A DNA stretch of 64,000 bases from Chloroflexota bacterium (GCA_013112575.1 JABFGG010000007.1:184934-248933), one strand, 5' to 3'; shown: positions 54,498-64,000, counted from the first letter of the stretch. The notes: a model not told the origin generated them from the sequence alone. Numbers and translations: made by a program.

Positions 54498-55238
54498 TCA
54501 GTCTTCGCCGCGTAACTTACGTCCTTCAGCCTTGAGCTTCTGGAAGAACTCCGAGTCGGCGATCTCGCCCACGTCCTGGGCGCGTTTGGCCTGGTCGATC
54601 TCGACTTTAAGCTGCTGCAACTGGCTCTTCAATTCCGCTTCACGTGCCCGGATACCTTCCACCATTTCGAAGAATGTGCCTAAAAAGCGATTGGCACGCT
54701 GGCCATCGGGGCTGCCCGCATCGGGCGTATCTGTCTGTACCCCTTTGATCTGTTCTTCCACAAAAGCATAATCACCGTCGGCGATGCGCGTGCTCCACTC
54801 GATAGACCGTTCAATGTAAGTCGTGGCAAAGCGCAAACGGTCGATGGCGTTGCGCGTCAGATACACAGCCAGTTCCGGGTGGCGGTTGAGCACATCCAGG
54901 AAATCGGTGCTGCTGAGTTTCAGGAGGCTGGCATCACTCAATGCCACCACACCCGCAGAACGCGGTTTCTGGTCGAGGATGGCCATCTCGCCGATCACGC
55001 TGCCCGGCCCTACCTCGTTGAGCACCACTTCCTGCCCGTCCGCACCGGGCGCAACCATTTTGGCACGCCCTTCTTGCAAGAGAAAAAGAGCCTCTCCCGG
55101 ATCACCTTTATGGAACAGGGTCTGGGTCGCCTTCAATGAAACGGCCTGCATTTTATCGAGCAGCTCCACGAGCACCTCATCCGGCAAGTCGGCGAAGAGT
55201 TCCAGTTTGCGAAGTTCTTGGGTGCTGGTATTAGTCAT
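54498..55238 (-). CDS. Cyclic-nucleotide-binding (CAP_ED) domain protein with a C-terminal coiled-coil module and no DNA-binding domain
   Basis: 246 aa. cNMP pocket GPGSVIGEMAILDQKPRSAGVVA. The C-terminal ~48 aa are a coiled-coil, ..QLKVEIDQAKRAQDVGEIADSEFFQKLKAEGRKLR. Confidence 0.8.
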   Translation of the reverse strand: MTNTSTQELRKLELFADLPDEVLVELLDKMQAVSLKATQTLFHKGDPGEALFLLQEGRAKMVAPGADGQEVVLNEVGPGSVIGEMAILDQKPRSAGVVALSDASLLKLSSTDFLDVLNRHPELAVYLTRNAIDRLRFATTYIERSIEWSTRIADGDYAFVEEQIKGVQTDTPDAGSPDGQRANRFLGTFFEMVEGIRAREAELKSQLQQLKVEIDQAKRAQDVGEIADSEFFQKLKAEGRKLRGED

Positions 55239-55356
55239 AAAAGTTGTCGATCCGTCTAATTAGCCCATCTGTCTAAATAGTCTCTGCCATTCGTGACTAT
55301 TCAAACCACTAGACTAATAGAACTATACCTTATTTTGGCATTGTATAATATTTGCA

Positions 55357-56904
55357 ATGGATGCGCCCAACGACACCATCTCCCCATTGATCCACCTTGA
55401 AGCGCGCCTGCGTAACCTGCTGCCTGCCAAGCTGTACGCCGGAGTGTGGATCAACCCCACCGTCAGGAACCTGACCCGCGTCTTTAACCACCTGCGCACC
55501 CTGCAGCGCATCCTCTACGATTACCTACCGCGCCAGGTACTCACCGACCTGCCACTCCCTGGACAAACACGCTTTACATGGGAAGAAGGCACGCTGATGT
55601 TCACCGACCTGGCCGGTTTTACCCCGCTATTGGAGGCCAATGCCAGCCACGGCAAGGAGGGCGCACAGGTCTTGCTGGACGTGCTTAACGGCTATTTTGC
55701 AGAAATGCTGGGCATCGTCAGCAAAGCAGGTGGCAACCTGCTGGAGTTCACCGGTGATGCCTTGTTGGTCCAGTTCCCCACCGACCGCAAACACAGCGAC
55801 ACCAGCCGTGCCGTGCGCGCCGCCTTGCGCATGCAGCGCGCTATGCAACAATACGAGAAGATCGAGGTGTTGGGTGAGCAGCATTCTCTCGGTATGCGCG
55901 TCGGCCTGCACGTCGGCCAATTCCTCACCGCCGACGTTGGCACACCACAGCGCATGGAACACGTCCTACTGGGATCATCCGTGTTGGGCGCTAAACATGC
56001 CGAGGGGGCCGGAAAAGTAGAACGCGTCAGCCTCAGCCTCGCAGCACAAGAACGTGTCGCTACTCACTTCAAGTTTGAAGAACATGGCGATGAACACGTG
56101 CTGGCCGTGGACAACTTCACCGAAGAACAGCTCGGCGACTATGACATCATCCCCTCCCGCCATCGTCTGCCCAGCCTGATCCTCTTCGATACCAGCAAAG
56201 AGGGTCTGGTTCAGGCCATTGCCGACGCCATTGATAAAGTTGAGCCTTTAGCCTCTTATTTGCCACGCGGCGTGCTTAAGCTGCTCGTCGAGAATGCCGC
56301 CAACCGCCGGCTACCCCCCGATTTCCCCTTTGCTACAGTGATGTTTATCAACCTGTTGGGATTACCGGACATGCTGGCCGATCAGGACGAAGCATCCGCA
56401 CAGGAGGTCATCGCCACCTTTTCCCGCGTGGTCTCCCTCATCAACGCCGAGGTTGAAGCGCGCGGCGGTATCATGAAAAAAGTCACCTATCATCACGCTG
56501 GGCCGGACATCATGGTCATCTTCGGCGTGCCGGACTCGCACACTAACGACACCTCCCGCGCTGCCCAGGCGGCCCTCTCCATTCGCGAGATCGTGGAAGA
56601 CCTGGGTGAACTGAGTATTGGCGAACATCACAGCCAGCTTACCTGCCACATCGGCATCGCCAACGGGCGTGTCTTCGCCGCCGAGTTTGGCGAACCGCAG
56701 GGCCGTCGCGAATTTAACGTGATGGGTAACGTGGTCAACACCGCCGCCCGCCTGATGGATTTTGCCAAGAGCAACCAGATATTACTTACCGAAGGTGCCC
56801 AGGAAGATTTACAGGCTGAGTTCGAATCTAAGAAGTTAGAAGGGGTAACACTAAAAGGACTTTCAACCACCCTGACGCTCTACGAGCTAGGCCAGGCGCG
56901 CTAA
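55357..56904 (+). CDS. Class III adenylate/guanylate cyclase with two tandem cyclase-homology domains
   Basis: 515 aa. CHD1: LMFTDLAGFT...EFTGDALLV. CHD2: VMFINLLGLP...VMGNVVNTAARL. Confidence 0.8.
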   Translation: MDAPNDTISPLIHLEARLRNLLPAKLYAGVWINPTVRNLTRVFNHLRTLQRILYDYLPRQVLTDLPLPGQTRFTWEEGTLMFTDLAGFTPLLEANASHGKEGAQVLLDVLNGYFAEMLGIVSKAGGNLLEFTGDALLVQFPTDRKHSDTSRAVRAALRMQRAMQQYEKIEVLGEQHSLGMRVGLHVGQFLTADVGTPQRMEHVLLGSSVLGAKHAEGAGKVERVSLSLAAQERVATHFKFEEHGDEHVLAVDNFTEEQLGDYDIIPSRHRLPSLILFDTSKEGLVQAIADAIDKVEPLASYLPRGVLKLLVENAANRRLPPDFPFATVMFINLLGLPDMLADQDEASAQEVIATFSRVVSLINAEVEARGGIMKKVTYHHAGPDIMVIFGVPDSHTNDTSRAAQAALSIREIVEDLGELSIGEHHSQLTCHIGIANGRVFAAEFGEPQGRREFNVMGNVVNTAARLMDFAKSNQILLTEGAQEDLQAEFESKKLEGVTLKGLSTTLTLYELGQAR

Positions 56905-58218
56905 CATTTCCTGCCGCACAGCCTGCGCATCCTCGATATTTTCCCCCACAACTAGATAACCGAAGGATCCCATCTCCAGCGCCGAGGTCAGTGTGAGGAT
57001 CACGCCGCGTTGCTGCTCATCGATGGGATACAAAAGGCCCTCAAAAGCATTTTCTAGCCCAACCAAGTCAGCAATTCCATTGCTCTTAAGTTTGTTCTGG
57101 CTGAAGACCGCCACCTGTTCCAGATAGTCTGGGCCAAAAAGCTGCATGAGGAATTCATGCACGTAAGTGCCGCCCGTCCGCCGTGCGTTGATCTCCACCA
57201 GATACAAATGCCCATCATCCCCCACAATGGCGTCCAGGTCAAAATGCCCCACGTAACCCAGAGCCTGCACCTGCGCCGCGATAGTTAAGCCCCAATCTTC
57301 AAAGCCTTCATACCAGGCTTCCTCAAACAATTCTTTTCCCAGGATCACACCCGCAAAACGCCCCGAATCCTCAAAGTGCTGGTTGCTCAAATAGGTAATT
57401 ACGGGTTTGCCATGATCCATAGCAGGCACATAGAACTCCAGTGATGGCGAGACAGCATCCCGTGAGGGGATGATCTCCTCAACCACATATAGGTCTTCCT
57501 GCATGAAGGCATTGCGCTGCAAAATCCCAAGGATATCTTCGGCAGCTTGCAATTCTTCAAGAGACAAGAATAGGTTCCCCACCCCACTACCGCCCTGGTT
57601 GGCCTTGACCACACAACCTTTGCCCTCCGCTTTGAACCACTTGGCTGCCTCGGCGGCCTGTTTCACGTTGTGGCAGATGAAGCCAAAAGGCAATACATCT
57701 TCGGCATCCAACCACTGGTGTACCAGCACACGAAAACCCACCTTGGAGTCCAGATAATCTTTCAACCACAGATTCTCCGGAGTCGGGCTTTCCGGCAGGC
57801 AGATGTTCAAGCCATATTCGGTTTCAAGTGTATGAGACAATTGCAGGAACTCGGGCGTGGAGGCATAGGGCACCAGCGCCAGTTTTTTTTCAGGCCCGGC
57901 ATGGGCCAGCAGGCGCTCTAACAGCTCCCCATCATTCAATATGTCCTGGCTTAATAAGAAACTGGGCTTGTCAGGGTAAAGACAGTGCGTATCTACATAG
58001 CCCCACCGCTCGCTCAATCGCTCAGCATCACCAATCGGTGATGTGGAGATAAGCAATTTCTCGCGCCCCAGCCACCATAAGCCGTGGTCGCCGTTAAAAC
58101 GCCGGTCCCAGATGGTGGCGTCGTCGCCGGTGCGGCTGAGGAAACCGTGAAAAGTCTCTAGATAATTATGGACAACCAGCGTGGGTATAGCCTGGCTGTC
58201 TTCGGGCCATGGAGACAA
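56887..58218 (-). CDS. ATP-grasp fold ligase (carboxylate-amine/peptide ligase-like; possibly PGM1-related with a pre-ATP-grasp N-domain)
   Basis: About 443 aa if TTG 58218 is the start. The longer ORF to 58350 would overlap the upstream gene, and there is no in-frame ATG after 58232. VVKANQGGSGVGN (ATP-binding loop) and LYLVEINARRTGGT (ExN Mg site). The PGM1-like assignment is from memory only. Confidence 0.6.
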   Translation of the reverse strand: MSPWPEDSQAIPTLVVHNYLETFHGFLSRTGDDATIWDRRFNGDHGLWWLGREKLLISTSPIGDAERLSERWGYVDTHCLYPDKPSFLLSQDILNDGELLERLLAHAGPEKKLALVPYASTPEFLQLSHTLETEYGLNICLPESPTPENLWLKDYLDSKVGFRVLVHQWLDAEDVLPFGFICHNVKQAAEAAKWFKAEGKGCVVKANQGGSGVGNLFLSLEELQAAEDILGILQRNAFMQEDLYVVEEIIPSRDAVSPSLEFYVPAMDHGKPVITYLSNQHFEDSGRFAGVILGKELFEEAWYEGFEDWGLTIAAQVQALGYVGHFDLDAIVGDDGHLYLVEINARRTGGTYVHEFLMQLFGPDYLEQVAVFSQNKLKSNGIADLVGLENAFEGLLYPIDEQQRGVILTLTSALEMGSFGYLVVGENIEDAQAVRQEMLARLA

Positions 58219-58231
58219 TTGCGCCGCCTGT

Positions 58232-59272
58232 CTATTCGTCCTGGTCGCGTTCCTGACGCAATTTGGCAGCGCGCGATTGCAATTCACGGAAGAAATCGGT
58301 TTCCACGATCTCATCCACCTGTTCGCTTTGCTGGCCTTTATCAATCTCAATACGCAGCTCGGCTACCTGTCGCAACAGCTTTTGCTCGCGCTCGTAGACC
58401 TTTTCCACCATGATGTCGAACACATCCGCCAACCGCCCGATCTCATCCCGGAAGCGCTGCGCACCGATCTCCGACAGGTCCTGCTCATAATCGCCCTCGC
58501 CGATAAGCTCTGCCGCATCGGTAAGCTGCGCAATGGGGCGTGTGAATATCTGCGAGAAAGCAAATACTAGAATAAATAAGATTGCATAGGTTATCAAGAA
58601 AGCTGTAAGCATCTGGCTGAGAATTGATTGGCGCACGTTGTCCACATATTCCGCCCGGAAGTCCACACCCACCGCCGCCACGATTTCTCCCTGATCATTC
58701 ATCACAGGCGCATAAGCCGAGACCCAGCGCCCAAAGCTATCGGTGTAAGTATCAAATTCGCCCTGATCGTTTAAGCGGAAGGTGAGTTCATCGAGGCCAC
58801 GGATAAGTGAACCTGTACTGGTATACGGCTCCATAAAACTGGCGGAACGGTCGTCATCGTAGCGCGCCCACAGGTCAGCCACGAAAAAGACTTCGTTTTC
58901 ACCTTCGCCACGAATGTACACGTAAGGCCAGGCGCGCGGCTCGATCTGATGCACCACTTCCAGCCAATCCAGTTGGTTATTGAAACGCTGATCGTCCGAA
59001 TAGCCCGCGTCGTTAGGCACGCCATCCGCTGCTAAGGCCAGCAACTCTTCATGATTCACGCCCTCCACCGCTGCCTGCACCGTGTCGCTCAGGTCTTCCT
59101 GAATGCGCCCCAGAGCCAGATTAGTGGCAGTAGTGAAGAACCAGTAGAAGGCTGCCGCAAATACCACGCTGAACAGCACCGTGAAGCCGATCAGCAGTTT
59201 CCAGCGTAAGCTAAAGAAAGAAGACCTCTTTACGTCCCCGTTGTCTGTAGTGCTCAGGTTATTCTCGGCCAT
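58232..59272 (-). CDS. Membrane sensor: TM - periplasmic Cache-like domain - TM - HAMP - coiled-coil, with no recognisable output domain
   Basis: 346 aa. Two TM helices flank a ~170-aa extracytoplasmic domain (GRWVSAYAPVMNDQGEIVAAVGVDF is Cache-like). HAMP: TRPIAQLTDAAELIGEGDYEQDL..RDEIGRLADVFDIMVEKV. C-terminal coiled-coil: ..ELRIEIDKGQQSEQVDEIVETDFFRELQSRAAKLR. Confidence 0.65.
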   Translation of the reverse strand: MAENNLSTTDNGDVKRSSFFSLRWKLLIGFTVLFSVVFAAAFYWFFTTATNLALGRIQEDLSDTVQAAVEGVNHEELLALAADGVPNDAGYSDDQRFNNQLDWLEVVHQIEPRAWPYVYIRGEGENEVFFVADLWARYDDDRSASFMEPYTSTGSLIRGLDELTFRLNDQGEFDTYTDSFGRWVSAYAPVMNDQGEIVAAVGVDFRAEYVDNVRQSILSQMLTAFLITYAILFILVFAFSQIFTRPIAQLTDAAELIGEGDYEQDLSEIGAQRFRDEIGRLADVFDIMVEKVYEREQKLLRQVAELRIEIDKGQQSEQVDEIVETDFFRELQSRAAKLRQERDQDE

Positions 59273-59297: not shown

Positions 59298-60641
59298 TCA
59301 AGACTCAAGTTTCTTCAATAGGACAGAATCGGTGCGGCGTTGGCGGCGCTTGAGACGCCAGCTCAACAGGCTGCTTTCATAAACCGACCGCAGGCGCAGG
59401 ATGGCCCAGAAGGCCCCGATAGAGGCCAGCACGGCCACTGCCAGGTAAACGATGCTCATATCCCGGTTCTGTACCAATCCGATAATGACGATGGCTCCGG
59501 CCACAACACAGGCCAGCATGGTGCCGACTGAAGGCAAGTAACTTTCCATCATAGTGCTTACACGCCCGCGCCGTTCTTCAGGCACCAGGCCCTGGAAGGA
59601 CTTGCGTCCAGATTCATCCACGGTGTCGCGCACCAGTTTGACCGTCACCATAGCGATGACCGCCATCGAAAGTCCCGGCAACAGGATCATACCGATTGCC
59701 CCGATCAATGCAGCTGCGGGGAAGATGAAGAATGTATTTTTTAACTCCATGGCCGTGATCATGCGACTGGTGATGAAGGCCTGGATGCCCAATGCCACCA
59801 CGGTCACACCCAGACGGTACAGGCTGAAGAATTGTTGGTAACTGGCCTGCGTGGTGAAGATGGCATCACTCACTACCAGGAAGCGGAATTCGATGATCGT
59901 ATCGGCCACAGCCAAAAAGAGAATGGCGTACATCATGAAGCGGAAAGAAGGCACGTCCGTCATGAAATCCCAGCCTTCTCTTAAGGTTTTTCTTATAGGT
60001 TCGCTTTGCTGCACCGTTTTGCGAATATCGACATTGCGCAAGCCCATTGTGATGAGCACATAGGCCACCAGATAGATCACAATATTGATCAGCAAAATTT
60101 CTTCAAGGGGAATGCCCAGTGCCAAAAAGATCGAGGGGGAGATCGCCGCGATGCCAATACCCAACAGTTTGCCCACAAAATTCCAACTCGAGATCACCGG
60201 GAAGAGGCGTTTGCTCTGGTCAAGCTTAAAGATGTCATTGGCCAGTACCCAGAAGATCAGCGGATAGAGTACATATTGCTGTTCAGCGATCAGGTACATC
60301 AGAGAATAATTCAGCCAATCCGGTGCGCCGATCCAGAACATAACCCGCAGGACCAGGAAGATCACGGCAAAGGCCAATGTTGCCCAACGTATCAGTTTGA
60401 CTCGGTCAAAACGGTCCACGATCAGGCTTTGCAATCCACCCAGCAGCATGATCAAGGCATAATCGATGAACAGGATCAGCAGAATCTGGTTGACACCACC
60501 TGCATTGAGGAAACCGCTGACAGAAACAATCCCCGCGATTTGCATTGCTATAGAGTTGATTAGCAATACAAAACCCAGCACGAAGACCAAAGACCCCTCC
60601 CCGGACTGGATGCGCAGTAGCCGCATAAGAGCTTGTCTCAT
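59298..60641 (-). CDS. 12-TM carrier of the MFS-like / ATP:ADP-antiporter (TLC, Npt1/Npt2)-related type
   Basis: 447 aa. The N-terminus LLRIQSGEGSLVFVLGFVLLINS and the overall pattern resemble the TLC-like membrane module that is often fused to cNMP-binding/HEAT domains in other bacteria. This assignment is by resemblance only. Confidence 0.5.
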   Translation of the reverse strand: MRQALMRLLRIQSGEGSLVFVLGFVLLINSIAMQIAGIVSVSGFLNAGGVNQILLILFIDYALIMLLGGLQSLIVDRFDRVKLIRWATLAFAVIFLVLRVMFWIGAPDWLNYSLMYLIAEQQYVLYPLIFWVLANDIFKLDQSKRLFPVISSWNFVGKLLGIGIAAISPSIFLALGIPLEEILLINIVIYLVAYVLITMGLRNVDIRKTVQQSEPIRKTLREGWDFMTDVPSFRFMMYAILFLAVADTIIEFRFLVVSDAIFTTQASYQQFFSLYRLGVTVVALGIQAFITSRMITAMELKNTFFIFPAAALIGAIGMILLPGLSMAVIAMVTVKLVRDTVDESGRKSFQGLVPEERRGRVSTMMESYLPSVGTMLACVVAGAIVIIGLVQNRDMSIVYLAVAVLASIGAFWAILRLRSVYESSLLSWRLKRRQRRTDSVLLKKLES

Positions 60642-60684: not shown

Positions 60685-61440
60685 TTAGGCCAGTAAACGG
60701 TCTGCCAGTTTCTGAAGTTCCTGCGTCACCGGATGATCGGGGTATTCCAATGCAAATATGCCCGCACTCGCTAATACCATCAACTCATCGGCATGCGGCA
60801 TCAACGCAGCCACTTCAGTATTATAGGTTTTCCCGATGGTCGCTTTGACTTCTTCAAAATCAAAAACTGCAGGCACTTTATTGACCGCCATCAGCAATTC
60901 CGCTACTTCCAACTTACGTGCCACTTCCACGGTCACACTCGTTCCCAGGTAGTCTTGCTGGTCGGGGCGCAAGATAAGCAGAACAATGTCCGAAATGGCA
61001 ATGGACAATAGCGTTTCCTCGTTCAGGCCCGGATGGGTGTCGATCAATAGGGCGTCCAGTTCCAGCTTCTTGATCAGTTCCTGAAAACCGGAGTCCAAAA
61101 GCCCTACGTCATAACCTTCGCGTAACACGCGTGCAATTTCACCCGCGTTCAGGCTGGAAGGAATCAGGAAGACTTTGCCATCAACAGGAGTCTTGAGGTT
61201 GCCGGTCACGTCATAGGCTGCGTCCGAGATGGAACACTGCCCCCACAGATAATCATTGAGGGAGTTTTTCATGTCGGACTGCTCAAGGCCAAACAGCGTA
61301 TTGATGCCTGGTGATTGGATGTCTGTATCCACTACACCCACGCGCAGGCCCCTTTGTGCCAGCAGGGTTACCAGGTTGGCGGTAGTATTCGACTTGCCTG
61401 TACCACCGCGATAAGAATGTATGGAAATGATCTTTGCCAT
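60685..61440 (-). CDS. ParA/MinD-family P-loop ATPase
   Basis: 251 aa. Deviant Walker A SYRGGTGKSNTTANL, switch regions VVDTDIQSPG and LLIDTHPG. Confidence 0.8.
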   Translation of the reverse strand: MAKIISIHSYRGGTGKSNTTANLVTLLAQRGLRVGVVDTDIQSPGINTLFGLEQSDMKNSLNDYLWGQCSISDAAYDVTGNLKTPVDGKVFLIPSSLNAGEIARVLREGYDVGLLDSGFQELIKKLELDALLIDTHPGLNEETLLSIAISDIVLLILRPDQQDYLGTSVTVEVARKLEVAELLMAVNKVPAVFDFEEVKATIGKTYNTEVAALMPHADELMVLASAGIFALEYPDHPVTQELQKLADRLLA

Positions 61441-61508: not shown

Positions 61509-62804
61509 TTAATCCTGACTACGCTCGTGGGTTTGCTGCCAACTACGCGGCTCGATGGTGCGCTTTTTCCCCGCCAGCAAACCCGCCACGCCCTGTTGTT
61601 TATTTTCGCGTTGGCGTGCCTGGCAGGCTTCACAGGTTTCCGGGTCGTGAGACTCGTATTCATCGGCCTGGGTATAGGTGCTGATAAAGCCTTCGTAGTT
61701 GCGCACCACCACCTTGTCCTCCGACATGCTCATCAAATAATTGGGCAGGATGGGCACTTTGCCACCGCCGCCCGGCGCATCTATCACGTAAGTTGGGATG
61801 GCATAACCCGAGGTGTGCCCACGCAAGGCTTCCATGATCTCAATACCTTTGGCCACCGGCGTACGGAAATGACCTGCACCCTGCACCAGATCACACTGGT
61901 ACAGATAATAGGGACGCACGCGATTGCGCACGAGGGTATGCACCATATCCAGGATGATATTGGGGCAGTCATTGATACCCGCCATCAACACCGACTGTGA
62001 ACCCAACGGGAAACCGGCATCGGCCAGTTTAGCAACTGCTTGCACAACATCTGGCGCCATTTCTTTGGCGTGGTTTATGTTCAAATGTATCCACAAGGGT
62101 TGGTGGCGGCGCAGCATGTCCACGAGTTCATCCGTGATACGCTGGGGTAGGAACATAGGTACTTTGGTATTCAGTCTCACGATCTCGACATGGGAAATGT
62201 CATTCAGACGCGTCAGCAAATTATCCAGTATTTTGGCAGGCAAAATCAGTGGGTCACCCCCCGATAACAGCACATCGCGGATCTGCGGGTTGGCTTCAAT
62301 ATAGGCGATCTGCCGTTCATAGTCATGGGAACCAAAATTCTCTGCAGGGTCGCCCACGATACGGCTGCGTGTGCAGAAGCGGCAGTAGCTAGCACATTGT
62401 GTTGTGGTCATCATCAACACACGATCCGGATAACGGTGCACCAGCCCCGGTACAGGCGAATGCTGGTCTTCCGCTAATGAATCGACCATCTGTGCATCAA
62501 AGGAGACCAACTCTTGCCCCAGGGGCATCACCTGTCTGCGAATCGGGCACTGGGGGTCATCCGGGTCCATCAGGCTGGCGTAGTAAGGCGTCACATCCAC
62601 CCGGAAGGCGCCAGGAGCCGACAAGCCTGCGATCTCATCTTCTGTTAGATTGAGGATGGGTGAGAAATCCTCCACGGTATTCAAGCGGTGGCTCAACTGC
62701 CAGCGCCAGTCATTCCACTTCTCCATAGGAACATCTTCCCAGGGAGTTGGCGGCGTTACCAGACGATGCTCTTCATTTAATGCAGTATCTATTTTCGTGG
62801 TCAT
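61509..62804 (-). CDS. kamA: L-lysine 2,3-aminomutase (KamA/AblA family radical SAM enzyme)
   Basis: 431 aa. It is colinear by eye with Clostridium KamA over the full length: WNDWRWQLSHR, VTPYYASLMDPDDPQCPIRRQ, SPVPGLVHRYPDRVL, radical SAM CASYCRFCTR, DVLLSGGDPL, RPYYLYQCDLVQGAGHFRTP, GYAIPTYVIDAPGGGGK, and a C-terminal Cys cluster. Confidence 0.9.
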   Translation of the reverse strand: MTTKIDTALNEEHRLVTPPTPWEDVPMEKWNDWRWQLSHRLNTVEDFSPILNLTEDEIAGLSAPGAFRVDVTPYYASLMDPDDPQCPIRRQVMPLGQELVSFDAQMVDSLAEDQHSPVPGLVHRYPDRVLMMTTTQCASYCRFCTRSRIVGDPAENFGSHDYERQIAYIEANPQIRDVLLSGGDPLILPAKILDNLLTRLNDISHVEIVRLNTKVPMFLPQRITDELVDMLRRHQPLWIHLNINHAKEMAPDVVQAVAKLADAGFPLGSQSVLMAGINDCPNIILDMVHTLVRNRVRPYYLYQCDLVQGAGHFRTPVAKGIEIMEALRGHTSGYAIPTYVIDAPGGGGKVPILPNYLMSMSEDKVVVRNYEGFISTYTQADEYESHDPETCEACQARQRENKQQGVAGLLAGKKRTIEPRSWQQTHERSQD

Positions 62805-62961
62805 TCTTGCTTCTCAAGTGTTATAAGAAATTCACAATGGATATACAATTAGTTGAGAGAGTTAAGCTAAAAGGGTCGCCAACCGAAAGTATAATAGACA
62901 ATCACATACAAAAAGATTGCATTTACGTAAGACCCTTTTTGGAATTATTTATCGACCAACT

Positions 62962-63537
62962 ATGCAGACACGATACGAAAACGTAGATTACACGAAACTG
63001 AGCGATGAAGAACTTGTAAAACATGCTCAGCAAGGTGCCCTGGATGCCTTTTCTACTTTATATGAAAGGCATCTGAACAGTGTCTACAAACGCGTGTGGT
63101 ATGGTGTGCCCGAGCAAGATGTTGAGGATGTCACCCAGGAGGTCTTCATTGCGGCCATGAAATCGCTGAAGAGTTTCCGGGGCGACGCCAAATTCACTAC
63201 CTGGCTGCGCACACTGACTACCCGTAAAGTAGCAGACTACTACCGGCGCACACGCCGGAAAAGCGCCGATTTATCGGCAGAAATGGAATTGAAAGAAGAA
63301 CACGAAAACCTCCCTGTCCAGGAAAGCGGCCTGAGCACCGTTGAGCGGATTCACTTACAAGATGCCCTCAATCAGGTGCCGGAACATTACCGCGAGGTGG
63401 TTCTGTTGCGTTTTGCAGAAGGTTTGAGCTTCAAGGAGATCGCCCAGGTTCAGGGCAATTCATTGGAAGCCACCAAATCCCTCTTCCGGCGTGCTATTGC
63501 AGCCCTGAAGACACAGGTCGGAGAAAGCCATGCCTGA
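62962..63537 (+). CDS. ECF-type RNA polymerase sigma factor
   Basis: About 191 aa from ATG 62962. Region 2: DAFSTLYERHLNSVYKRVWYGV..EDVTQEVFIAA, FTTWLRTLTTRKVADYYR. Region 4: YREVVLLRFAEGLSFKEIAQVQGNSLEATKSLFRRA. Confidence 0.85.
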   Translation: MQTRYENVDYTKLSDEELVKHAQQGALDAFSTLYERHLNSVYKRVWYGVPEQDVEDVTQEVFIAAMKSLKSFRGDAKFTTWLRTLTTRKVADYYRRTRRKSADLSAEMELKEEHENLPVQESGLSTVERIHLQDALNQVPEHYREVVLLRFAEGLSFKEIAQVQGNSLEATKSLFRRAIAALKTQVGESHA

Positions 63538-64000
63538 AGATCGCAACCCCGAAAACGAGCAGGTCGACAAAGAACTGGCTGATTATACAGACAGGCTCAT
63601 AGACGAGAATCAGGTCACTGACGATGAACCGGCTGGTCTGGGCCGTACTGTGGAGCAACTTTGGGCCATGAGCAAAGACAGCACACCCACCCCAGATACA
63701 AGAAAGCGTATTCATTCCGCCATTCAAGATGAATGGCGTCAAACCTATGGGGAAGATGCCACACGATCAATCTGGCAACGTGTTGTCGCTTTCTTCATAC
63801 CCCCAGAAAATGAGTGGCGCTCACGACAGAAAATTCAACGTGTGGCCGTTACCCGTATCGCCGTGGCGGCAGTTATGGTGCTGGCCGTTGGATTAGCCAT
63901 CACTGGCGGGGGCGACTCATCCACTGGAACAGCCGGTAATGGCGGCGTTCTGCCCTGGATAATCACTGGTGTGGTCGTCGTCGCAGGATTCCTGTGGTTG
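63530..64000 (+). CDS. Putative anti-sigma factor / membrane protein (3'-truncated by the window edge)
   Basis: This ORF was hand-translated and is not in the track because it lacks a stop. The ATG at 63530 overlaps the sigma gene end by 8 nt: MPEDRNPENEQVDKELADYTDRLIDEN... TM helices: RIAVAAVMVLAVGLAI and WIITGVVVVAGFLWL. The function is inferred from position only. Confidence 0.4.
   Translation, partial: MPEDRNPENEQVDKELADYTDRLIDENQVTDDEPAGLGRTVEQLWAMSKDSTPTPDTRKRIHSAIQDEWRQTYGEDATRSIWQRVVAFFIPPENEWRSRQKIQRVAVTRIAVAAVMVLAVGLAITGGGDSSTGTAGNGGVLPWIITGVVVVAGFLWL

Follow-up and report, generated by a model that had tools for sequence, protein, structure and literature searches.

A C-terminal tail shared by kinase-less bacterial sensors and its link to a variant MinD/ParA-type ATPase

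The 64,000-nucleotide stretch of a Chloroflexota genome analysed here (GCA_013112575.1, JABFGG010000007.1:184934-248933; hereafter the window) encodes two sensor proteins, one cytoplasmic and one membrane-bound, that end in the same kind of C-terminal module, which we call the tail. The best explanation we can offer is that a large family of kinase-less sensors uses this tail as its C-terminal output module, and that the tail works with a variant MinD/ParA-type ATPase (ParAv), also encoded in the window, and mostly with a small winged helix-turn-helix (wHTH) protein or domain as well.

Two sensors with one C-terminal module

Both open reading frames (ORFs) were recovered where the first-pass annotation had placed them, and both end in the sequences it had quoted. 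The two proteins and their parts are as follows, with positions counted from the first letter of the window (cNMP, cyclic nucleotide monophosphate; TM, transmembrane):

54498..55238, (-) strand: ORF of cytoplasmic sensor 1, 246 amino acids; cNMP-binding domain (Pfam cNMP_binding, E=2e-24), long C-helix, cryptic HAMP-like helix pair, tail
54501..54839, (-) strand: HAMP-like segment plus tail of sensor 1, residues ~134-246 (hhalign, and tail profile match with E=1e-28)
54501-54674, (-) strand: tail proper of sensor 1
58232..59272, (-) strand: membrane sensor 2, 346 amino acids; TM helix, Cache-like periplasmic domain, TM helix, HAMP, tail
58235..58567, (-) strand: HAMP plus tail of sensor 2, residues ~236-346
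58235-58423, (-) strand: tail proper of sensor 2

Sensor 1 resembles the CRP/FNR family in its N-terminal cNMP barrel, with an intact phosphate-binding cassette (GE...PRSA), and in its long C-helix. Databases name it either "cyclic nucleotide-binding domain-containing protein" or, wrongly, "Crp/Fnr regulator": we rejected a CRP/FNR transcription factor for lack of a C-terminal HTH_Crp domain, in place of which the protein carries the HAMP-like unit and the tail, and cNMP_binding was its sole domain match in Pfam and NCBIfam, with no helix-turn-helix. AlphaFold2 (predicted local distance difference test score, pLDDT, of 78) places the barrel at residues 20-120, followed by the long C-helix (122-153), a short helix (157-170), a long helix (177-227) that bears the RE...L-x-I-x-ID...V-x-EI motifs and, after a Ser-Glu kink, a short last helix (230-242) with FF-x2-L...R.

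Sensor 2 has a clear HAMP domain (Pfam, E=1e-8), and its architecture is that of a family (F2_365) encoded after a carrier gene in other genomes. As to its description as a Cache sensor, relatives of the same architecture carry dCache_1, but its own periplasmic matches are weak and below the curated cut-off (Cache_3-Cache_2, E=0.014; sCache_3_3, E=0.2). As a methyl-accepting chemotaxis protein (MCP) or sensor histidine kinase it would lack the output half: in Pfam and NCBIfam we found neither an MCP signalling domain nor DHp plus HATPase after the HAMP domain, and the NCBIfam kinase models cover only residues ~180-325, with scores far under their cut-offs. We therefore rejected both assignments. 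In agreement with the first-pass annotation, no output domain (kinase, GGDEF, DNA-binding or other) was detected with these two collections in either protein, only cNMP_binding in one and only HAMP in the other.

The C-termini of the two sensors are homologous (BLASTP: 21/54 residues identical, or 39%; 39/54 positive, or 72%; E=1e-10). They had been called near-identical, which an identity of just 38-39% does not bear out (17/45, or 38%, within the ~45-residue cores quoted earlier). The sequence pattern proposed for them is present, with a spacing of EI-x4-FF rather than x3 (EIADSEFF and EIVETDFF). The shared unit is also longer than the ~45 residues first assigned to it. When the cNMP-tail family (63 sequences) was compared with 86 HAMP-tail proteins by profile-profile alignment in hhalign (99.7% probability, E=7e-26), the alignment covered the cNMP protein from residue ~134 to the C-terminus, against HAMP plus tail, with "YIERSIEWSTRIADGDY" of the cNMP protein falling on HAMP helix AS1. 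Because the alignment extends into HAMP, we define the common module as a HAMP or cryptic HAMP-like unit plus a tail of ~55 residues. Both window proteins fit the tail-family profile (E=1e-28 to 8e-30), each with such a unit before the tail.

A large tail family and its companion ATPase

A word-indexed homologue search with the tail region returned only the query itself and one near-identical relative; we used a full-scan profile search instead, with a profile built from the four tail sequences of the window's own genome. Among 1.84 billion representatives, it matched 2131 protein clusters at E<=1e-3, of which 877 remain at E<=1e-10. The Pfam domains found in 86 full-length tail proteins were HAMP (67), dCache_1 (21), cNMP_binding (5), REC (3), GAF (3) and a few others, so that the tail is joined, usually after HAMP, to many unrelated inputs. 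This fits the earlier view of the motif as a common element on the output side.

Within the tail, the long helix follows the pattern F-x2-M-x3-V-x2-RE-x2-L-x2-QV-x2-L-x-I-x-ID-x2-K-x4-V-x-EI, after which come a kink at [ST][DE] and a short, amphipathic, basic helix, [FY]F-x2-L-x2-KA-x3-R. The polar positions R12, E13, D28, K31, E38 and R56 are conserved at 75-99% in 150 cluster representatives, and hydrophobic positions are conserved beside them in the best 150 matches. Nearly all matches from the best 150 clusters (138/151) end within 30 residues of the protein's C-terminus. The tail resembles the HAMP output helices and S-helices of kinases, cyclases and chemoreceptors in that it continues HAMP helix AS2 and that its first third (the first ~20 residues) can be aligned, in NCBIfam models of histidine kinases, with the helix that comes after HAMP. 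It differs in that the proteins stop after the tail, without a DHp/HATPase, cyclase, GGDEF or MCP domain, and in its second half (ID-x2-K...V-x-EI...[FY]F-x2-L-x2-KA-x3-R), for which curated models and the PDB hold no counterpart. By itself, the tail gave no meaningful match in Pfam, NCBIfam or the PDB, where the profile matches were weak and to coiled coils only.

That kinase alignment and those PDB matches are what one would cite for a generic coiled coil or S-helix without a specific function. The tail is indeed helical, as its first description as a coiled-coil motif implied, but its conserved polar positions make it more than a coiled coil. With 877 clusters at E<=1e-10, near-invariant polar residues, a strictly C-terminal position and, as described below, near-perfect co-occurrence with one ATPase subfamily in three phyla, we regard the generic reading as ruled out, or so close to it that next to no likelihood is left. 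A generic coiled coil in random contexts, with no co-occurring partner, had been named beforehand as the outcome that would speak against specific docking; what we found was this large family and a single co-occurring ATPase.

That ATPase, which we propose as the partner of the tails, is encoded close to sensor 2:

60685..61440, (-) strand: ParAv, a variant MinD/ParA-type ATPase of 251 amino acids (Pfam AAA_31, 2e-17; ParA, 2e-15; CbiA, 2e-11)

Its P-loop reads HSYRGGTGKSN, whereas the canonical deviant Walker A motif is KGGxGK[ST]. The P-loop is HSFRGG/PGTGKS/T in 27 of 29 ParAv relatives and a close variant in the other two (HSFRRGTGKSS; first residue V), and all 29 have Arg at the position of the signature Lys. 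Since that Lys is replaced by an invariant Arg, we treat ParAv as a variant subfamily. The closest solved structure is archaeal MinD (1hyq, E=1e-13), and FleN (FlhG) is among the PDB matches (E~1e-7). ParAv is 251 residues long nearly everywhere and 60-80% identical across phyla, and clustering of public data at 90% identity gives at least 8000 clusters, every one of them named merely "MinD/ParA family protein".

We counted both families in samples of 201 Chloroflexota, 151 Cyanobacteria and 151 Acidobacteriota genomes, many of them incomplete metagenome-assembled genomes. Loci were counted from six-frame profile searches, with adjacency distances measured between stop-to-stop frames, and ParAv relatives in the Chloroflexota were counted at E<=1e-25 against the window ATPase. 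The two families coincide almost perfectly: in Chloroflexota 35 genomes have a tail (2 weakly), 32 have ParAv and 32 have both; the corresponding numbers are 22, 23 (1 weak) and 21 in Cyanobacteria, and 4, 3 and 3 in Acidobacteriota. Within Chloroflexota families it is the same genomes that hold both (for example, 8/13 in one family and 4/13 in another), and a tail was present in all five ParAv genomes labelled Oculatellaceae cyanobacterium, Desulfobacteraceae, Blastocatellia, delta proteobacterium and Binatia.

The genes are also often close together. A tail gene lies within 10 kb of 46/53 ParAv genes in Chloroflexota and 21/32 in Cyanobacteria, and, conversely, ParAv lies within 10 kb of 44/75 and 21/38 tail genes, respectively. 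Among 79 independently fetched ParAv loci, 49 contain a tail ORF, in 18 cases within ~130 bp, and in other genomes REC-tail and cNMP-tail proteins are encoded beside the ATPase. The window's own genome has four tail proteins and two ParAv paralogues; the two tail proteins not yet described are:

1.7 kb past the window end, (+) strand: sensor 3, a second cNMP-HAMP-like-tail protein, 271 amino acids
C3:139.3 kb on another contig (L003 592-1698): a fourth tail protein with a TM helix, a Tll0287-like (PF11845) c-type-haem sensor domain, HAMP and tail

The gene for sensor 3 stops 5 nucleotides before that for the second ParAv (52% identical to the first), which is followed by a wHTH gene. No ParAv gene lies near the Tll0287-type sensor. 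A convergence of an extracellular and a cNMP signal on a single partner, as suggested from the window alone, fits these numbers, because there are several tail sensors per genome to one or two copies of the ATPase (4:2 here).

A winged-helix protein and the route from sensor to client

In most loci ParAv is followed by a gene for a small protein of ~110-125 residues without a family model. AlphaFold2 predicts a winged helix with the topology H-S-H-H-S-W-S, and the top PDB matches in Foldseek are all wHTH proteins (ArsR/SmtB, MarR, BlaI and AspA; probability ~1, E from 3e-3 to 2e-2). An N-terminal FDRL helix is conserved in the family, and the core is followed by a basic linker and a C-terminal helix with an invariant Trp. 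Its members are mostly acidic (isoelectric point 4.7-6.6), and the helix in the recognition position is acidic or hydrophobic; with no basic recognition helix, protein binding would be favoured over DNA binding. The family diverges fast, and we detected it in 24/201 Chloroflexota genomes, all of them within the ParAv set (24 of the 32 system genomes). The wHTH protein is a third conserved component in most lineages.

The domain also occurs as part of larger proteins. In one natural fusion (P0130), a Cache-HAMP-tail sensor, a linker and the wHTH domain form a single polypeptide. Five loci labelled Binatia or Blastocatellia contain a minimal trio of ParAv, a wHTH-bearing membrane protein and a HAMP-tail sensor. 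We observed the domain within ~970-residue multi-TM proteins (L084, L109, L122, L124 and L130; Binatia/Blastocatellia), at the N-terminus of a member of the carrier family described below (L101), fused to glutamate dehydrogenase (L106), and in a ~612-residue protein together with a cNMP domain and a ~330-residue C-terminal module without assignment (L086/L126). To us, the wHTH domain looks like a portable tag on effectors.

We consider it fairly probable that the tail couples diverse sensors directly to ParAv; in the scheme that follows we infer the contact between tail and ATPase, the direction in which the signal passes and what the final output is. In the window, two inputs share one kind of tail: a periplasmic Cache-like sensor, and a cytoplasmic cNMP receptor that the neighbouring cyclase probably supplies. 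The HAMP domain or HAMP-like helix pair is predicted to run on into one long tail helix. Dimeric tails would then, most likely, dock on ParAv or on a ParAv-wHTH complex and offer a surface from which the state of the sensor could be read, and the docked tails would gate in ParAv the ATP-dependent dimer cycle by which its ATPase family is defined. The ATPase could in turn engage clients that bear the wHTH domain or are encoded in the operon, such as the carrier, other transporters and enzymes.

Several observations weigh against a direct coupling of this kind. Three sampled genomes (G086, G207 and G394) have a tail match without ParAv, although in the single strong tail-only Chloroflexota genome (G086) the match sits where a contig ends. 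For about 40% of tail genes there is no ParAv gene nearby, and the co-occurrence counts overstate independence because genomes within a phylum are related. The AlphaFold2 monomer models show the tail merely as helical (pLDDT ~77-79), and the known activators of ParA/MinD ATPases are short, basic, unstructured N-terminal peptides whereas the tail is structured and C-terminal. Finally, among the 150 best tail matches and the fetched loci we found no fusion of tail to ParAv; the only fusion was of tail to wHTH, so the wHTH protein may be what the tail binds.

If so, the wHTH protein or domain would be an adaptor and the true link to ParAv, much as ParP stands between chemoreceptor arrays and ParC. 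Besides the single-polypeptide fusion, such an arrangement would suit the usual gene order (tail sensor, ParAv, wHTH), the confinement of the wHTH family to genomes with both ParAv and tail, and its acidic character, which would favour protein binding, and the FDRL helix, basic linker and Trp-bearing C-terminal helix could contact the ATPase. Against an adaptor stand its detection in only 24/32 system genomes, even though the family diverges fast, the lack of a wHTH gene in the ParAv operon of the window, the single wHTH copy for four tails in the genome, and the many adjacent tail-ParAv pairs without a wHTH gene. An adaptor role of this sort seems unlikely to us, and we prefer direct coupling of the tail to ParAv.

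Direct coupling would have precedents of a kind. ParA/MinD ATPases are switched by short segments of architecturally diverse partners (PMC7993993). The pairs MinD-MinE, ParA-ParB, PomZ-PomX/Y, McdA-McdB, PpfA-TlpT and ParC-ParP all set a deviant-Walker-A ATPase beside a non-enzymatic partner with a short conserved segment. The partners in these pairs are architecturally diverse too, and receptors can be clients (TlpT, ParP-bound arrays). Here, in contrast, the segment is a structured C-terminal helix pair of ~55 residues fused to HAMP, the sensors are kinase-less single proteins without Che proteins, many sensors serve one ATPase, and Arg replaces the signature Lys. The activators of ParA/MinD ATPases (AAP) are described as short, positively charged, unstructured N-terminal peptides that stimulate the ATPase (PMC7993993). 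We rejected an activator of this type, since the tail is C-terminal, ~55 residues long and predicted to be helical; given this structured module and a ParAv without the signature Lys, we liken the tail to the partner in a ParA/MinD pair and do not file it as an AAP. FleN (FlhG)-FleQ offers another likeness, in that a MinD-family ATPase (the antiactivator of a transcription factor) serves there as a regulatory switch and not in positioning. FleQ is, however, an AAA+ enhancer-binding protein, that system has no HAMP-tail sensors and no small wHTH partner, and the similarity of ParAv to FleN is at the level of the family (E~1e-7).

The positioning pairs suggest a different role, in which the tail would be an oligomerisation or membrane element and ParAv would merely position or partition clusters of sensors and would not relay the signal, as in PpfA/TlpT and ParC/ParP. 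In favour of this, the last helix ([FY]F-x2-L-x2-KA-x2-L-R-x-RR) is basic as well as amphipathic, the extended helix that AlphaFold2 models after the HAMP-like unit would imply a parallel dimer, and ParA-type organisers of chemoreceptor arrays have evolved several times (bioRxiv 10.64898/2026.10.19.760177). The tail is found, however, on soluble cNMP and REC proteins and on sensors that already have a membrane anchor. Its invariant polar residues point to a surface that a specific partner recognises, the loci contain no CheA, CheW or array-forming genes, and ParAv has no obvious C-terminal membrane-targeting helix as read from its sequence. We give positioning or self-assembly little credence, and return to ParAv as the likely direct recipient of the signal.

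A ParA NTPase operonic with a small wHTH protein is also known from conflict systems, in which ParA is proposed to act as a switch (bioRxiv 10.64898/2026.10.19.760177). Those systems evolve rapidly, are mostly archaeal or carry effectors, and their ConB2 branch has Arg for the Walker A Lys (bioRxiv 10.64898/2026.10.19.760177). ParAv differs from them in being 60-80% identical across phyla and in keeping GKS while changing the first Lys, and the main text of the same preprint makes no mention of HAMP. PADLOC reported only generic cNMP and cyclase domain matches and a weak 37-bit ParA match. We rejected a defence system on the grounds that PADLOC found nothing specific and that the conservation of ParAv is unlike an arms race.

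A broader proposal, which we put forward tentatively and with less conviction than the coupling itself, is that the HAMP-tail, the Arg-variant ATPase and the acidic wHTH tag form a widespread and so far unrecognised kinase-less signalling route. Many sensors (Cache, cNMP, GAF, REC, haem) would switch one ATPase, and the ATP-bound ATPase would act directly on wHTH-tagged transporters and enzymes, and the output would be post-translational control of transport or metabolism, not transcription or positioning. The literature that we searched, by concepts and by literal motif strings, contained no description of a tail-ATPase system. Thousands of sensors annotated only as "HAMP domain-containing" or "cyclic nucleotide-binding", with no known output, now gain a testable partner and a defined module of ~55 residues. 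If the link is direct, it would be a new class of output in bacterial signalling that uses neither a kinase nor a second messenger. An uncharacterised family of carriers, a family of small winged-helix proteins and a MinD/ParA subfamily that is common in Chloroflexota and cyanobacteria would also be placed in a functional setting for the first time.

Neighbouring genes and the wider cluster

The other genes between and beside the sensors are of the kinds that the first-pass annotation had listed along with the MinD/ParA-like ATPase (a two-CHD class III cyclase, an ATP-grasp-like protein, a 12-TM carrier and KamA), and a sigma factor pair follows:

55357..56904, (+) strand: class III nucleotide cyclase with two CHD domains (Pfam Guanylate_cyc, two stretches)
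56887..58218, (-) strand: ATP-grasp-like ligase (weak Pfam matches to ATP-grasp_4 and PreAtp-grasp)
59298..60641, (-) strand: 12-TM carrier ("CARR"), in no curated Pfam or NCBIfam family (MFS_1 at E=0.03 only)
61509..62804, (-) strand: KamA/AblA-like lysine 2,3-aminomutase (NCBIfam lys_2_3_AblA, 522 bits against a cut-off of 525)
62917-63537, (+) strand: ORF of an extracytoplasmic function (ECF)-type sigma factor, divergent from the ParAv/KamA operon
63530 onwards, (+) strand: membrane anti-sigma-like gene (the pair spans 62917..64000)

Four of these neighbours (cyclase, ATPase, carrier and ATP-grasp ligase) had been put forward as candidate partners of the tail. Co-occurrence, and its place as the usual immediate neighbour, single out the ParA-like ATPase; the others are not universal. 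Cyclase orthologues (E<=1e-140) were found in 15/201 Chloroflexota genomes and carrier homologues in 19/201, in both cases entirely within the 32 genomes that have ATPase and tail. The carrier and the cyclase are thus system-specific accessories, present in about half of the ParAv set. This confinement is one reason to ask whether the tail might dock on one of them or on the ATP-grasp ligase instead of ParAv; another is that, in six mapped loci, the carrier gene is followed first by a GNAT gene and then by that of a Cache-HAMP-tail sensor, and in further genomes the carrier and sensor genes lie within ~3 kb of each other as a module far from ParAv. Yet only 15 of the 32 tail-bearing genomes have the cyclase orthologue and only 19 the carrier, no linkage to the carrier is seen for cNMP-tail and REC-tail proteins, and homologues of the ATP-grasp ligase and of KamA occur in only 3/79 and 0/79 ParAv loci, respectively. 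We accordingly think docking on any of these neighbours very unlikely. KamA and the ATP-grasp ligase, near-absent as they are from other ParAv loci, were rejected as tail partners; both are local additions that lie outside the conserved system.

The cNMP that sensor 1 reads probably comes from the cyclase, and the carrier is a likely effector of the system. Some carrier relatives are fused to HEAT repeats and a C-terminal cNMP-binding domain (L071 9461-13252), an architecture that has been described as NTT-HEAT-cNBD fusions (PMC5381601); Pfam gave no support for placing the window carrier in the NTT family. In other loci a GNAT gene follows the carrier gene, unlike in the window.

The ATP-grasp gene probably starts at an in-frame TTG at 58218, 13 nucleotides past the stop of sensor 2; the longest ORF (56887-58350) would overlap the end of the sensor 2 tail-coding sequence by 119 nucleotides in another frame. 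KamA heads the five-gene operon of the window and recurs in one sampled genome (L064). Here KamA and the ATP-grasp gene flank the ParAv, carrier and sensor genes, and both are also present in the ParAv-carrier locus of that other genome. The local output may be a solute derived from beta-lysine, as these genes hint.

Past base 64000, C7:248968-252277 of the same genome encodes, on the (+) strand, a PrsW-like intramembrane protease, sensor 3, the second ParAv and a wHTH protein, after which the contig ends; the first-pass annotation had overlooked both the wHTH component and this second cNMP-tail/ATPase/wHTH set. The super-cluster as a whole thus runs from a leftward cNMP-tail gene and a rightward cyclase gene, through leftward ATP-grasp, sensor-tail, carrier, ParAv and KamA genes, to rightward genes for the ECF sigma factor, anti-sigma, PrsW-like protease, second cNMP-tail protein, second ParAv and wHTH protein, and this order recurs in related Anaerolineae-type genomes. 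An ECF-type sigma gene is divergent from the first ParAv gene in the window and in six related loci (L046, L049-L051, L055 and L056), and the same regulon may include the sigma pair. In one Chloroflexota family (L057, L058 and L059; G154 and G199), ParAv directly follows a partner-switching set made up of a STAS anti-anti-sigma protein, a PP2C/SpoIIE phosphatase and an RsbW-like kinase (L057-L059), together with a gene for a glycogen-debranching-type enzyme.

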